Shown: piece by piece, positions 25,701 through 54,737 of the stretch
How positions within the stretch are numbered: the stretch's first letter is position 1
How the letters are laid out: each line of letters opens with the position of its first letter
Program-made: the position numbers and the translations under genes
The notes under the pieces: model-generated
What the model was told of the DNA's origin: nothing
What the model saw: the letters and a program-made list of their open reading frames with translations, nothing else
Database searches by the model: none
Assembly: GCA_003345545.1 (NCBI GenBank)
Contig: PRDH01000044.1
Coordinates: 1-64,000 of the forward strand
Length of the DNA stretch: 64,000 nt
Origin: Candidatus Thorarchaeota archaeon
GTDB lineage: Archaea; Asgardarchaeota; Thorarchaeia; Thorarchaeales; Thorarchaeaceae
Direction of reading: 5' to 3'

Positions 25701-25982
25701 GAGGCTGAAGGGCTTGTGAGAGATGTGACAAGGCGGGTTCAGGTCATGAGAAAGGAACTAGACCTCAAGGTCGAACAGTCAATTGACCTGGTACTTCAAT
25801 TCTCTGAGGATGAATCGGTCGAACTGGCAGAGATGTTCAAGACACATTTGATAAACGAAACGCGGGCACAGTCATTGAATCTTGTGGGTCCTAAGAAGGT
25901 GCCAGATTGGGGAAAGTATCACTATGTCAAGGATTGGCAGATAGATGACCTTAGCTTAAAGGTAGGAATAAACCCCCTGTAG
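22785..25982 (+). CDS. ileS: Isoleucine--tRNA ligase
   Basis: EGPPTTNG..HVGH (HIGH motif), WTTTP, DWCISRSR.WG, DQSRGWF, KMSKS. Confidence 0.96.
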   Translation: MSSLPKRYEPLALEEEVLDFWERERIYDKTIELRSTGPRWNFLEGPPTTNGFMHVGHARGRAMKDAQIRYMTMRGYNVWRRGGWDMQGLPVELEVEKKEGIVEKGLIGSNLGMDVFVKKCKELVDFYLERWVNDSVRLGLWLDYPSAYQTRRDDYIEHVWYFLKLANEKGLLGRGYRVNPICPRCVTALSEHEVSQGYLMKTDPSIYVKFKLVDRENEYLVIWTTTPFTLISNEMVSVHPDCKYVKVKVEGELWWLVEDRVEDVMRKAKKKSYEIVDSLLGKKMLGWKYEHPFKDEVPFHRAHDEKYMHAVVTGTHVTVVDGTGLVHTAPGFGPDDFNVGREFEVPVLAPVTGSGKFTSEVPMFEGRFVFDTNPEVPRLLEKKGLLVHEETLEHEYPHCWRCDTPLIYLADKTQWFLKMTGVRERLVKENSIVEWTPEWAGTGRFGDWVANADDWCISRSRVWGSPLPVWICDDCKSEIVIGSRKELKEHAIRMPKDFEMHRPWADKVVLKCERCGGKMHREKFVTDCWLDSGMAHTASLDYLKDPALHKQLFPFDFITEAVDQSRGWFYSLLYTSVVMHDKAPFKAAVSQEHVLDEDGGKMSKSRGNVVWAQDAFASIGADPFRAFVLTRSASWSRMNYDSKEIELTRKKLDVLWNVVLFTETYMDLDDFKFNEKRMMKSLPNANIEDRWILSRLQSVVKEYHEQMKKYLWHQAGRILLDFISEDLSRVYLPLVKKRVWLDSEDPKKVMAYDVIYYTLQTFLRALNPFTPFLCEKLHKDFLVRFADGLPESINLTDMPMPVEKMIDTEMESTFDVLQELRSASSYARNKKGVKLRHPVAKVILIAVDDEISSRAESLRDLLLDDLNTRAFEVRRTDVMAEFTQLSVKPNYKALGPKYKDMMKQLVAALQEANAVKLRADLEKGKAGVVVAGKKLKLVEGDLEFVESLPDHLSFAESNVGKVYIDVTRTKELEAEGLVRDVTRRVQVMRKELDLKVEQSIDLVLQFSEDESVELAEMFKTHLINETRAQSLNLVGPKKVPDWGKYHYVKDWQIDDLSLKVGINPL

Positions 25983-25986
25983 GTAC

Positions 25987-27324
25987 CTACTCGGAGTTCT
26001 TCTCTCTTGTCAAAACTTCTATCATCGTGTGGAATACTTCGGCATTCTCTCTAAGAGATGGCAATGATACCCATTCATTGGCACCATGCAGATTATCGCC
26101 TTCCGGGCCAAAATCGAAAAGGTCTGCACCTTGTCCCGCAAAGTACCGTGAGTCAGAACCTCCAAATCCTTCGATAATGCTGTAGAAGACACCCTTTTTG
26201 TTGAGAGCCCATTCCATTGCCCGAATCAGGCGTGAATCAGGGGCAACATCAACATAGCCGGCTCCGCCTAGCACTTTCAACGAAGACAGCTCCAATTTGC
26301 CCTTCACTGCCTCTCGAATTGATTGTTCTACTTCATCATTGTTATTCGTCATCGCTCGCACATCACAGTACAGAGTCCAGATGTCGCTTTCTTTCGAGAG
26401 GAGGTTGGGACTGATGATCTTCCCTTTGTCGGAGTGTCTTGTAGGAAAGGCTGCCTGTGAGATAGCCAGAAGGACTCGTAAGAGCTTGGTCAGTGCAATG
26501 TCGTAGGTGGATTCAACTCCAGAAGAGTCTGGATGGACAACATCCAGCTCTACCCAGTCAGGTACGACATTCGACTTCAAGAACGCACCTCTCACGTCAG
26601 AAACTACAGTTTCAGGATGCATGTCCAGATACTTTGAGGCAGTGAGCATTGCATGCCGGTCTACACCGGGTCTGAGATATGCACTATGACGAGTGTTTGA
26701 GCCGTAGGTTTCGGTCGTGAAGCGAACGGTTTCGGGCTTGCCCCTCACCTTCGCTTTATTTGCATCCACCTTCACGTAGGTAGGAAGAATATTGCGGCGT
26801 CTATGTATGATTTGCTGGTGGATGCCGTCCGCGACCACAACGTAATCAGGAAACAGTCCATGCTTGACTAGCCAGTCCCTAAGCATTCCAGCTCCATTTC
26901 GCCCGCCTATCTCCTCGTCGCCAGTCATGGCAAACATGACAGTACATGGAAGGTCAGACTGCATGAGATGTTCAGCAAGGAGAATAAGTGAAACGACATT
27001 TCCCTTGTCATCGCAGGCCCCTCGACCATATGCCACATCGCCATCAATCTTCAGCGATAAGGGATCGCTGTTCCAGCCGCTTCCGAAGGGTACAACATCA
27101 AAATGGGCAAGGAAAAGAATCTTGAAGGCGCCACTGCCTCTTCTGCCAAAGGCTGTGTAATACCCTTCGGATTCCAATAGCTCAGTATGGCAACCAGCAT
27201 CAGTCAGAAGCCTGTTGATATACTCTGGGCATTCTTTACCAGGTTTCTGAGAAGGATCGTCGTTTCTTGTGTCAAAAGCCACAAGTTTGGCAAGGACATC
27301 GAACAGATTAGTCGTCATAATCAA
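25987..27324 (-). CDS. M20 family metallopeptidase/deacylase (ArgE/DapE-like)
   Basis: AHFDVVP, GRGACDDKG, DEEIGG, GGSD, HGANE. Confidence 0.88.
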   Translation of the reverse strand: MIMTTNLFDVLAKLVAFDTRNDDPSQKPGKECPEYINRLLTDAGCHTELLESEGYYTAFGRRGSGAFKILFLAHFDVVPFGSGWNSDPLSLKIDGDVAYGRGACDDKGNVVSLILLAEHLMQSDLPCTVMFAMTGDEEIGGRNGAGMLRDWLVKHGLFPDYVVVADGIHQQIIHRRRNILPTYVKVDANKAKVRGKPETVRFTTETYGSNTRHSAYLRPGVDRHAMLTASKYLDMHPETVVSDVRGAFLKSNVVPDWVELDVVHPDSSGVESTYDIALTKLLRVLLAISQAAFPTRHSDKGKIISPNLLSKESDIWTLYCDVRAMTNNNDEVEQSIREAVKGKLELSSLKVLGGAGYVDVAPDSRLIRAMEWALNKKGVFYSIIEGFGGSDSRYFAGQGADLFDFGPEGDNLHGANEWVSLPSLRENAEVFHTMIEVLTREKNSE

Positions 27325-50268: not shown

Positions 50269-52167
50269 CTATCTCTTGTCTTCGCCGGAGTCAACAGAAT
50301 CTAACAGACGATCTAGCTCGTCGAGCGTCTCATCATCGATAGGCAGGTCTTTTTTCTTTTCGTTGTCATCCTTGGACCCTTCAGACTTGGCTCCGCCCGC
50401 AGTGAGATCCAAAGGACCTAGAATCGATTCAAGCTCCTTGAGAGACTCTTCATCAATCTCGAAGCGAGTTTCCGACTCGCCTCGAGTGGAAACGGCTTCA
50501 TCGCTCTTGAATGCCTCAAGAGCCTTATCGATCTCAGTATGCGGAACAAGATCAATCTCTGCAGAGATGAAATCATCGGCCTGGAGTGCCTCGAAGATAA
50601 TATCCTTAGCCAATTTGACATCTCCATTGTCCTCTTCGATGACGGGCTCAATAGTAGGCACATCCTCTGCTGGCTCTGTTTCCTTGGGAGTATCAATTGT
50701 TGGTGAAGGTGCCACTTCCTCGATTTCAGAGGAGATTTCAGAGCGTTCCATGGAGAGCTCCAATTCCTCGAGGAGCATGGGTTTGGGCACTCTCTCTTCG
50801 GTCGGTTCAGATTCATTCTGAGCAACTGCATCCTCAAGAGCCTCAATGGACTCTGTTGTGTCACGCAATGCTCGGTCTTCTATGAGTTCAGACTCACGAT
50901 GTATCAATTGCTCATCCGAGAATTCAACATCAAGAGCTTGTGATTCCATTGCTTCTCCGGGTTCTGAGATAGGGATGTCTGCTTCCTCTTCTTTTGGCTC
51001 TGCAGTCAAAGCCACATCTGACTGCTCTGATGTTGCGGTTTCTTCCTCTTCTGCTTCATCAATGGATCCTTCGTCAACCTCTTCGATGACTTCCTCTACG
51101 ACCTCATAGTCGTCGGGATTCTCGACAACATGACCACTCTCATCAACTAAGACCTCCTCAACGACCTCAATGGCTTCATACTCACCCTCTTCGCCGGCTT
51201 CTTTGAGTTCTGCGGCCTCGCGCCTCTGAGCCATTGCATCGGTTTCTGCGATTGCCTCTTCAGTCGCTGTAGCCGTAAACTTCAGCAGCTCTGATGCAGG
51301 AAGGTCTGGCAGTGCCACTCCAACATATTGAGCCGCAGCAGTCATTAGTATCCCGAGCATCTCGTCGCGTCTTGCTTTGTCGATTGCTACCATTGGATAG
51401 GTAGGAATTCCAAGAATCTTCTGCACGACTTCGGGCCTCATGGCGTTTGGCTTGTCCTGTTTGTTGGCCAGAGCAAAGACAGGGACCTTGGGAGCATCTC
51501 GTTTGATGAGCTTGAGAATGTCCTTACTGATTATGACGTTACGAAGGGCAGAGTCACAGACTAGGAATATCACATCCGCTCCATGGAAATAGAACCGCCA
51601 CAGCATTCGAAAACGTTCCTGTCCCGCAAAATCCCAGAGGACAAGGCTATAGTTCCCGAATCTGATGTTCTCAACTGTTTCGAGATTGAGTGCAATGGTT
51701 GGCACGTACTGCAGTGGGGGTGTGTCACCAAGCAGAAGATGGAGTGTCGTGGTCTTTCCTACACCACCTTCGCCCACAAGAGCAATTTTGAGTCGAGTAG
51801 TCACTGATGGTTCGATAATCTTCGCATACCTTTCGCGGATTGATTCGAAGCCAAACTTTGCGAGGTCCTTCCTCAACGTCTTTGAAGCAGCCGCGACCTT
51901 GTCAAATATGGCACTTTCACTCTCGCCCTTGTCTGTAACAAATAGAAGGAGTATGTCTGAGACTGGTTCTGCTCCATGGAACTTGTGTTCACCAATAACG
52001 AGTGCCAGATTGTTGAGATCAGTTTCGTCGCTCCCTTCGGAGAGCAGTTCCTCCCTAGTCTTGACATACTCTTCAAGAGTCTCTTGCGACACCTCCACGG
52101 GCCAATACCTGGTTGATGCAAGCACTCTTCTTGTCGAGAGTCGTATAAGGAAGGTGTTGTGAATCAA
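50269..52167 (-). CDS. Longin-like domain, Arf/Rab-like small GTPase and long acidic tail
   Basis: N-terminal MIHNTFLI...LLLFVTD; GEGGVGKT, YVPTI, WDFAGQERF, NKQD; more than 300 aa of E/D-rich C-terminus. Confidence 0.85.
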   Translation of the reverse strand: MIHNTFLIRLSTRRVLASTRYWPVEVSQETLEEYVKTREELLSEGSDETDLNNLALVIGEHKFHGAEPVSDILLLFVTDKGESESAIFDKVAAASKTLRKDLAKFGFESIRERYAKIIEPSVTTRLKIALVGEGGVGKTTTLHLLLGDTPPLQYVPTIALNLETVENIRFGNYSLVLWDFAGQERFRMLWRFYFHGADVIFLVCDSALRNVIISKDILKLIKRDAPKVPVFALANKQDKPNAMRPEVVQKILGIPTYPMVAIDKARRDEMLGILMTAAAQYVGVALPDLPASELLKFTATATEEAIAETDAMAQRREAAELKEAGEEGEYEAIEVVEEVLVDESGHVVENPDDYEVVEEVIEEVDEGSIDEAEEEETATSEQSDVALTAEPKEEEADIPISEPGEAMESQALDVEFSDEQLIHRESELIEDRALRDTTESIEALEDAVAQNESEPTEERVPKPMLLEELELSMERSEISSEIEEVAPSPTIDTPKETEPAEDVPTIEPVIEEDNGDVKLAKDIIFEALQADDFISAEIDLVPHTEIDKALEAFKSDEAVSTRGESETRFEIDEESLKELESILGPLDLTAGGAKSEGSKDDNEKKKDLPIDDETLDELDRLLDSVDSGEDKR

Positions 52168-52294
52168 GGCTACCTCACCAGTGTACGTAGTGGTTTGTGT
52201 GGTATGCTAGGGAAGCTCACGCAACATGAAGTAAGGTAGTATTGTCTTGATTAACTTGTTTTGTGTGTGTACAACTACAATATGCAGCATGACA

Positions 52295-52492
52295 AGGTTA
52301 GATGTTGGGGTTCAAAGAACCCCGAACATCCGTTGGAGCGTGTTCTTCGACCGGGGGCGGTAAAATTCGTTTATGCGCAAGAACAGTGCAGTAATCACTG
52401 CAATTAGGGACTAGAACTCGTGGGACCGTGTATTGCGAGTTCCTGACGGGGGAAGACCGCCACCCGTTTGAAGTTCACACTACAGCAGACCT
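52295..52492 (+). ncRNA. Candidate ~200-nt multi-helix ncRNA (unknown family)
   Basis: 13-bp hairpin 52301-52330; long interrupted stem 52332-52361/52456-52486 enclosing hairpins 52387-52402 and 52414-52442; G-U pairs favour the plus strand. Confidence 0.55.
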
Positions 52493-52568
52493 CGAATCGC
52501 CATAAGAAGCTTTCTGGTTCACCAAAAAAGGATAGTTATTTTCATTTTGTTGAATCGAGGTGTGATAG

Positions 52569-52604
52569 GTCTTTTTTCTTGTAATATTCATAAGAAAAAA
52601 AGAC
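52569..52604. terminator. AT-rich inverted repeat, possible bidirectional terminator
   Basis: gtcttttttctt...aagaaaaaaagac gives T-tracts on both strands, between the candidate ncRNA (+) and the convergent gene (-). Confidence 0.55.
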
Positions 52605-52638: not shown

Positions 52639-53778
52639 TCAGCGGGGGAAGTTGTCTCGCAGAAGACGAAGGTGTTGATGGACCATCTCCATTGCCTTTG
52701 GATCATCAGGAGTCTTTTCGAGATCCGTCACCAGCGTCTGCAAGAAATACTCGGGGAAGAATAGTCTTACACGAATGTCATTAAGCAGGAATAGCCACTT
52801 GTCATATTCGCCTGAGGCACCCTTTCTGCGTTTTTCTGCGACTACCCTGAACTTCTTGAGGGTTTGGATTGCCTCCTTAAGCTCCTTCGGAGGAATGCCC
52901 AGCGTGGCCTCCAGTTCAGAGATATTTGCCGGGCGTCTTCTGAGTTCGCTGAGTGTATCATAACAGTCAGGATCTGCCAGGACTTGAGCGACTGATACAG
53001 TGTCTTCAGGGGTCTTTTGCCACTCCGTCAGGAATTCCAATACTTCTGACTTATACTCCGCCGCAAGCTCAGGATCCAAAACTCCACTAGCGGACTCCAT
53101 CGCCACGAGGGGCGGGGCTCTGAAGATTTCAAGGTCCTTTATCATGAAGACACACGTTCGACCAATCTCATCGACCCATTCCGTCTTTACTAGACCAAGT
53201 TCCTCAAAGGGGGCGATGATGGAGTCAATACTAACACTCGGAAGACCTGTGACCATCTTCAACCATTCTTCAAGTTCTTCTTTTGAGATACCACCTTTCC
53301 AGAGCTTGGGAAATACAGCCCGAGAAACCTCATCAGAGAACAATCGTGCCAGACGAGACTCATCAGTCATCCCAGCAAGTCTGATGATACGTCGGTATGT
53401 GTTGTCTAGCTCATCCTGAAGCTCTGCATCAGTCAATGCAACGACAGCATTTGTCAGAGGAGTCACAATCGACGTGATAGCAGCCTCATACATCTTCGGG
53501 TCTTCCGAAGGCGTCAGCAAAAGGGATACACAGTATTGCTCTTCCTCTCTCACTATTCCAGTATAATACGAAGCAACACCATATTCCTCACCGCCAATTC
53601 GGATACTGAGTGATGAAAATCCGGCTGTGGCATCACCCATGGCGTGAGACGTGAAGATACGCATTATCTCTGTATTAAGATCTTCACGGTAGTAGTCAGC
53701 AAAATCTGCAGGTACCTTCGCCTTCAGAACTGCTCCTATCTTTGAGTCCCAATCTATAAGCAGCATCGCTACGGGCAT
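52639..53778 (-). CDS. uDENN/longin-like protein with C-terminal winged helices
   Basis: N-terminus MPVAMLLIDWDSKIGAVLKAKVP...VASYY...VSLLL...EDP; wHTH-like ISELEATLGIPPKELKEAIQTLKKFRVV. The ATG at 53778 is preferred. Confidence 0.65.
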   Translation of the reverse strand: MPVAMLLIDWDSKIGAVLKAKVPADFADYYREDLNTEIMRIFTSHAMGDATAGFSSLSIRIGGEEYGVASYYTGIVREEEQYCVSLLLTPSEDPKMYEAAITSIVTPLTNAVVALTDAELQDELDNTYRRIIRLAGMTDESRLARLFSDEVSRAVFPKLWKGGISKEELEEWLKMVTGLPSVSIDSIIAPFEELGLVKTEWVDEIGRTCVFMIKDLEIFRAPPLVAMESASGVLDPELAAEYKSEVLEFLTEWQKTPEDTVSVAQVLADPDCYDTLSELRRRPANISELEATLGIPPKELKEAIQTLKKFRVVAEKRRKGASGEYDKWLFLLNDIRVRLFFPEYFLQTLVTDLEKTPDDPKAMEMVHQHLRLLRDNFPR

Positions 53779-54610: not shown

Positions 54611-54737
54611 CTGGAATCCATCGAAATCTGCGCTGTTTTAGATTCTTCGGTCATGAATCACATGCTCAGATTCTATGAGAGCAATTCTTAAATTCGACAT
54701 GTTGTAGGATATGTTATCCTATCCAGTGTGATATAAA

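Follow-up and report, generated by a model that had tools for sequence, protein, structure and literature searches.

The question raised by this locus is whether a 470 bp gap between two genes in the window (the whole stretch of 64,000 nucleotides of a Candidatus Thorarchaeota contig analyzed here) encodes a structured RNA and, if so, from which strand it is read and what the RNA might do. A preliminary description had proposed a multi-helix non-coding RNA (ncRNA), undescribed in Asgard archaea and antisense to both flanking genes. The helices it listed are present in the sequence, and both strands fold more stably than dinucleotide shuffles (z-score −4.4 for the plus strand; −3.6 for the minus strand, or −4.3 on the refined span). 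By its sequence, the gap holds a stand-alone ncRNA gene, here called RNA1, that is real, uncatalogued, conserved, present in a single copy and equipped with a predicted promoter of its own. The proposal of an undescribed Asgard ncRNA is borne out by this conservation, by covariation and by the lack of any Rfam or literature match. An Rfam scan of the locus returned nothing significant, and none at E ≤ 10 for RF01857 on either strand; ten diverse homolog loci likewise had no Rfam match. Searches of the literature on Thor or Asgard RNAs turned up no description of RNA1. This genome carries one copy, and no small open reading frame (ORF) within it is kept across homologs. The gene and its surroundings are as follows.

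52292 to 52480, minus strand: RNA1, a structured ncRNA gene of about 185 nt (match to covariance model R1 at 52291-52479; fold z-score)
52478-52480 (5′ end) and about 52295 (3′ end), minus strand: RNA1 ends, predicted and not mapped
52501 to 52517, minus strand: predicted BRE plus TATA promoter, AGAAAG-CTTCTTATG
52639 to 53778, minus strand: upstream neighbor, a conserved Asgard protein with a C-terminal winged helix, found upstream of RNA1 in every locus long enough
50269 to 52167, minus strand: downstream neighbor, an Arf-like GTPase with an acidic tail, not always adjacent to RNA1
52249 to 52265, minus strand: separate TATA-like motif, conserved in the alignment, the putative GTPase promoter
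52569 to 52604, minus strand: T-tract palindrome, a probable terminator for the gene upstream

Strand, predicted promoter and neighbors of RNA1

Several kinds of polarity point strongly to the minus strand, which places RNA1 in the same orientation as both neighbors rather than antisense to them. The G-U versus A-C wobble cells in helices P1 and P2 (described below) stand at 36:4 in favor of minus, and UNCG loops number 17 on the minus strand and 0 on the plus strand, while GNRA loops are even between strands. A strict BRE/TATA pattern is found upstream of 59/69 copies and on the opposite side of 0/70, in counts made on the same sequences from which the pattern was derived and on genomes that are not independent within genera. 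This promoter type resembles the family's 16S, 23S and tRNA promoters, and RNA1 tails are U-rich on the minus strand. The plus-strand preference of the preliminary description holds only for the folding energy of this one sequence (−83.8 for plus vs. −72.3 for minus). Across genera, single-sequence folding energies are mixed, which accounts for that earlier choice. Upstream of the promoter, two further motifs may be transcription factor sites: TTCG-N3-TTTYGRAA just ahead of the BRE in genera g3, g7, g8 and g10, and repeated TGCGA motifs in g1.

With the spacing from TATA box to start calibrated on Thor SRP RNA genes, RNA1 is predicted to begin at 52478-52480, which is the base of P1. The closing helix drawn previously (52295-52299/52488-52492) is not conserved: its second arm lies upstream of the predicted start, and a helix of at least 5 bp at this position is possible in only 13/58 homologs. 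Because contigs from three public RNA-seq runs leave the RNA1 locus uncovered, and so speak neither for nor against it, minus-strand transcription from 52478-52480 to about 52295 is something that we infer, although strongly.

The neighborhood argues for independence. A convergent ORF directly follows RNA1 in g5, g6, g9, g36, two g10 genomes and one g1 genome, and another, unrelated ORF precedes RNA1 in one g7 genome. Together with the TATA-like motif of the GTPase, the convergent ORFs mean that RNA1 is best read as its own gene, not as a leader. Minus-strand transcription as a UTR had been allowed for at the outset; the strand is right, but a UTR does not fit an element with a predicted promoter to itself that, in several lineages, is not coupled to the gene downstream. 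The T-tract element, previously noted as following the RNA, occurs only in the nearest relatives and lies outside RNA1.

Two other features of the region were noted. A putative GNAT-like gene (240-370 codons, assigned by eye) is the convergent gene between RNA1 and the GTPase in g5, g6, g10 and g36. At window positions 54705-54727, just before a DUF4430 gene, is a palindrome of the type TAGGATAGGTTAACCTATCCTA that is conserved across genera and is likely an operator of the downstream transporter-like operon.

Distribution, fold and a sister RNA

Model R1 detects RNA1 in 72/86 genomes of the Thorarchaeota family, with a single real copy in each apart from one assembly with a duplicated locus. 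R1 was built from one subgroup, and the syntenic gaps of 29 relatives align over RNA1. A core model, R2, extends the range to more genera, and the remaining ones came from unfiltered searches of the syntenic site, so that two models and synteny together place RNA1 in 16/16 genera. In the only genome of the sister family, the flanking genes are 127 nt apart and RNA1 was not found between them. Filtered searches of about 115 other Asgard genomes with R1 or R2 gave no credible match; one marginal match outside the family (E 0.04) lacks the motifs and synteny, and pattern matches in viruses, non-Thor genomes and three metagenome contigs fail the covariance model. RNA1 is an uncatalogued family, near-universal in Thorarchaeota. 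Its presence as one copy in all 16 genera, with a conserved promoter, suggests that it does something important. In Rfam and the literature searched, almost no Asgard ncRNA families other than the rRNA, tRNA, SRP and RNase P RNAs were found. The RNA1 model, the predicted ends, the motifs and the sister RNA described below offer a handle on RNA-based regulation in the relatives of eukaryotes, while the apparent restriction to one class for now limits claims about how eukaryotes arose. From 5′ to 3′, RNA1 is composed of the following parts.

52456 to 52480, minus strand: 5′ arm of P1, a long interrupted closing helix (6/7 inner pairs vary on both sides; top mutual-information pairs)
52444 to 52455, minus strand: J1/2, conserved C-rich motif CCCCGUCA, unpaired in the centroid fold
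52413 to 52443, minus strand: P2, helix GGAACUCG/CGAGUUCU with a loop bearing CACGGUCCC (97% of cells paired, five invariant pairs)
52403 to 52412, minus strand: J2/3, second GUCCC motif, family consensus GCAUUGGUCCCC (alignment and mutual information)
52387 to 52402, minus strand: P3, a hairpin free to vary in sequence and length but usually retained
52362 to 52386, minus strand: J3/1, unpaired, containing UUGCGCA and a run rich in U, conserved in the alignment
52338 to 52361, minus strand: 3′ arm of P1 (covariation and fold)
52300 to 52331, minus strand: P4, 3′ hairpin domain beginning GGAUG (homolog comparison)

P1 closes a multiloop formed by J1/2 (CCCCGUC), P2 (whose loop ends in GGUCCC), J2/3, P3 and J3/1, and P4 follows. 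In a sequence-only alignment of 28 diverse copies, 92.5% of the P1 and P2 cells pair, compared with 18-50% for slid controls, and 9/15 pairs vary at both positions. Mutual information over the RNA1 alignment is highest for pairs within P1 and gave no pseudoknots. The long helix, the GAACUC/GAGUUC hairpin and the 13 bp hairpin (now P4) of the preliminary description are all conserved, and the long helix covaries. Five P2 pairs show no variation over 12 genera; g2 and g36 have compensated helices instead, and the J1/2 motif differs in the same two genera.

The unpaired CCCCGUC, GGUCCC (1-3 copies) and UUGCGCA motifs are nearly fixed across homologs. The multiloop holds two to five C-tracts per sequence, with modular duplication and genus-dependent spacing, and in g4 and g9 the GGUCCC of J2/3 is displayed in a hairpin loop. 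In some genera, extra hairpins occur at the 5′ end or within the loop. The tails after P4 are pyrimidine-rich (TTTT in 20/59 vs. AAAA in 4/59). A 22-nt exact copy of the RNA1 5′ arm occurs about 340 nt downstream of the tRNA-Ala(TGC) 3′ end (L002:1501-1522; G000:C70:35455-35476), adjoining a C/D-box-like stretch, and is not conserved in five relatives.

A second RNA of about 170-200 nt, the sister RNA, is found about 2 kb from RNA1 but on the other strand, ahead of the thymidylate kinase gene (tmk) and usually before DUF4430 (e.g., L347:1181-1349, which is G099:C19:24181-24349; also L367-L392). It has a closing helix and no Rfam match, a TATA-like motif precedes it by about 25 nt, and we regard it as a second uncatalogued, stand-alone structured RNA with its own putative promoter motif. 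The sister RNA was detected in 27/87 genomes and 6/17 genera; a model search of this genome did not find it. An unfiltered match to the sister model at window positions 25873-26001 (17 bits, E 0.003) lacks the signature and is probably due to chance. RNA1 and the sister RNA share GGUCCCCUUGCA, GAGUUCU and ACUUGCG in the same RNA sense, a signature of 9-14 nt that in the sister is paired within a helix, not unpaired. The 3′ signature of the sister is nearly invariant, and in its helix only the partner strand varies, which suggests that the sequence itself is recognized.

Possible functions of RNA1

Our best guess, held tentatively at a probability of about 0.4, is that RNA1 acts as a multivalent protein-binding RNA, i.e., a scaffold or sponge. 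The gene would be transcribed from its own archaeal promoter on the minus strand into an RNA of 185-260 nt, in which P1 would hold open a multiloop showing CCCCGUC, GGUCCC and UUGCGCA and P4 would cap the molecule. One RNA-binding protein or ring could dock at the repeated motifs, with RNA1 serving in a housekeeping ribonucleoprotein, and the sister RNA might bind the same partner via the common GGUCCCCUUGCA/GAGUUCU/ACUUGCG signature. We favor protein binding because the C-tracts are repeated two to five times with modular duplication and genus-variable spacing, because GGUCCC can sit in hairpin loops (g4, g9) while five P2 pairs never vary, because the signature recurs, in the same sense, in a second and independent RNA, and because tests of base-pairing targets gave no support. 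The absent pairing target is weak evidence, since invariant motifs cannot covary and mRNAs were taken from one genome only with crude gene starts. The genome encodes three LSm proteins and KH proteins, but nothing links these to RNA1. That the signature is paired in the sister RNA also tells against this reading.

An unlikely but bolder version is that RNA1 and its sister are the first of an Asgard-specific class of small stable ribonucleoproteins resembling snRNA or snoRNA, assembled on a shared protein (e.g., an LSm ring at the U-rich strand) and either chaperoning 16S folding or pairing with each other. If true, they would be an archaeal counterpart of eukaryotic U-type RNAs.

It is possible, though doubtful, that RNA1 is instead a guide or chaperone resembling U3 snoRNA, with its C-rich strands pairing transiently, in small-subunit assembly, either to pre-rRNA spacers or to the G-rich 5′ strand of 16S helix 28. 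J1/2 can form an 11 bp duplex with 16S nt 886-897 (−21.3 kcal/mol, vs. −14.7 for the antisense control), the best rRNA site, and the consensus J2/3 pairs with the same helix-28 site at −17.2, compared with −11.7 for the native partner strand. The near-universal single copy and rRNA-type promoter suit a housekeeping role of this kind, and a GACGGG motif recurs in 16S trailers. Variation does not follow the pairing, however: the J1/2 variants of g2 and g36 disrupt the duplex without any change in 16S, and the 16S variants of g32 and g35 are uncompensated. The 16S trailer and 23S leader show no cognate advantage, and a single nominally significant result for the 16S leader (p 0.01 among 12 tests) is gone with corrected segments. 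A resemblance of RNA1 to 16S nt 1378-1408, although striking by eye, is not significant (p 0.88 vs. shuffles), and other Asgards assemble ribosomes without a detectable RNA1 homolog. Other rRNA sites were tried and rejected. Exact complements in 16S h39/h40 lie side by side in this genome without covariation, the 23S 276-312 site is variable across genomes, and the GGGACC frequent in 23S leaders falls within the leader's own helices, with no cognate advantage for the pre-rRNA spacers.

The rRNA loci have features of their own. Across the family, strong conservation, structure and covariation mark the leader (about 330 nt) and trailer of 16S as well as the 23S leader (L071:1150-1500, L072:1080-1500, L185-L252), and the 16S and 23S genes are on different contigs. 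Several 16S genes have a 30-nt insert in the 3′ strand of helix 28 (near nt 1350-1385, L071), and G014, G035 and G099 have breaks of 0.7-1.8 kb near 16S nt 875; the inserts and breaks are probable rRNA introns.

Pairing with mRNAs, in which unpaired UCCC would cover ribosome-binding sites, is an unlikely role. RNA1 does have several unpaired UCCC tracts, as do Staphylococcus aureus RsaE and RNAIII (PMC2790875), and the Shine-Dalgarno sites of this genome are GGAGG/GGTGA, yet UCCC is a poor match to GGAGG. In one genome, with crude gene calls, the motifs showed no stronger pairing at translation-start regions than within coding regions and no difference from shuffled queries, and complements of GCAUUGGUCCC in 58 genomes fall in unrelated places in the 20 inspected, giving no common mRNA target.

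Less likely again is an RNA-RNA pair, in which the GGUCCCC and L2 strands of RNA1 would invade the closing helix of the sister in the manner of an sRNA sponge or of U4/U6. The predicted energy of RNA1 with the first 40 nt of the sister is −19.2, and the antisense control reaches −13.4 (cognate advantage −0.7, p 0.057); one genome has a 14-nt perfect complement between the two RNAs, whose genes are about 2 kb apart. Such complementarity follows automatically from the common signature, however; genus-level energies are not diagonal, and the RNA1 motifs are conserved in genomes in which the sister was not found, this one included.

It is very improbable that RNA1 is a cis-acting leader, riboswitch or attenuator of the Arf-like GTPase, or an element in the 3′ UTR of the upstream gene. 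Its strand is that of its neighbors, its link to the upstream gene is constant in loci long enough to tell, and the conserved junction could be an aptamer. Against a cis role are the predicted promoter and U-rich tail of RNA1, the separate TATA-like motif of the GTPase, the convergent genes that follow RNA1 in several lineages and the unrelated ORF that precedes it in one. No Rfam riboswitch matched, and RNA1 does not keep a set place ahead of a co-oriented gene family.

Least probable is that the locus encodes a plus-strand antisense RNA or a divergent SRP RNA or is a DNA element such as a MITE, for although the plus strand folds more stably in this genome and SRP RNA was not found in the assembly, the wobble, UNCG and promoter counts (36:4, 17:0 and 59/69 vs. 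0/70) all favor the minus strand, and the many-copy MITE considered in the preliminary description is at odds with one copy per genome at a fixed syntenic locus and none in viral contigs.

Comparison with known RNAs

Signatures of the SRP helix-8 motif, RNase P, 5S rRNA, tRNA and riboswitches had been reported absent, and this is upheld: Rfam finds none here, and SRP, RNase P and 5S RNAs are encoded elsewhere. The true RNase P RNA is at G000:C12, and RNA1 has no RF00373 match or pseudoknot covariation; 5S rRNA has its own locus, and ARAGORN makes no tRNA call here. A tRNA-Sec is present in this genome. Apparent resemblances to the glmS, c-di-AMP and cobalamin riboswitches, the HDV ribozyme and domain V of group II introns are not backed by Rfam.

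Like archaeal SRP RNA (RF01857), RNA1 has a long helix, a multi-hairpin head, a single copy and its own predicted promoter, but it lacks the helix-8 SRP54 motif, an Alu domain and any Rfam score. The SRP-like outline that had been remarked on is a red herring, because the relatives carry canonical SRP RNA elsewhere in addition to RNA1; a canonical 310-nt SRP RNA was found at a separate locus in 34/36 family relatives. This genome gave no SRP RNA match despite encoding SRP54 and SRP19, probably owing to an assembly gap.

The likeness to S. aureus RsaE and RNAIII (PMC2790875) is that several C-rich unpaired motifs lie where a structured RNA is most conserved. RNA1 differs from these in its predicted archaeal promoter and in having no sequence similarity to them, and its complementarity was not enriched at ribosome-binding sites in the one genome scanned with crude gene calls. 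With Y RNA/YrlA it shares a long terminal stem, a pyrimidine-rich loop and a U-rich tail, but not the tRNA-like domain, and a Ro60 (TROVE) gene was found in 0/61 genomes searched.

The comparison with U3 snoRNA and other rRNA chaperones is based on the potential pairing beside the central pseudoknot and helix 28 and on a housekeeping-like range. Unlike U3, RNA1 shows no C/D boxes or kink-turn, and its pairing is unsupported by covariation; inspection of the alignments found no C/D boxes (RUGAUGA/CUGA), kink-turn or ACA box in the consensus of the core or the 3′ domain.

For RNA1 as a protein-binding scaffold or sponge, the comparison is with the CsrB/RsmZ-type sponge RNAs, whose GGA motifs are bound by CsrA/RsmA. 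RNA1 has GGUCCC/UCCC in place of GGA, carries its two to five copies in one multiloop under a long helix and has no Rfam match. Like these sponges, it is a stand-alone RNA with short unpaired motifs of variable number, some of them in hairpin loops, and with a hairpin at its 3′ end.
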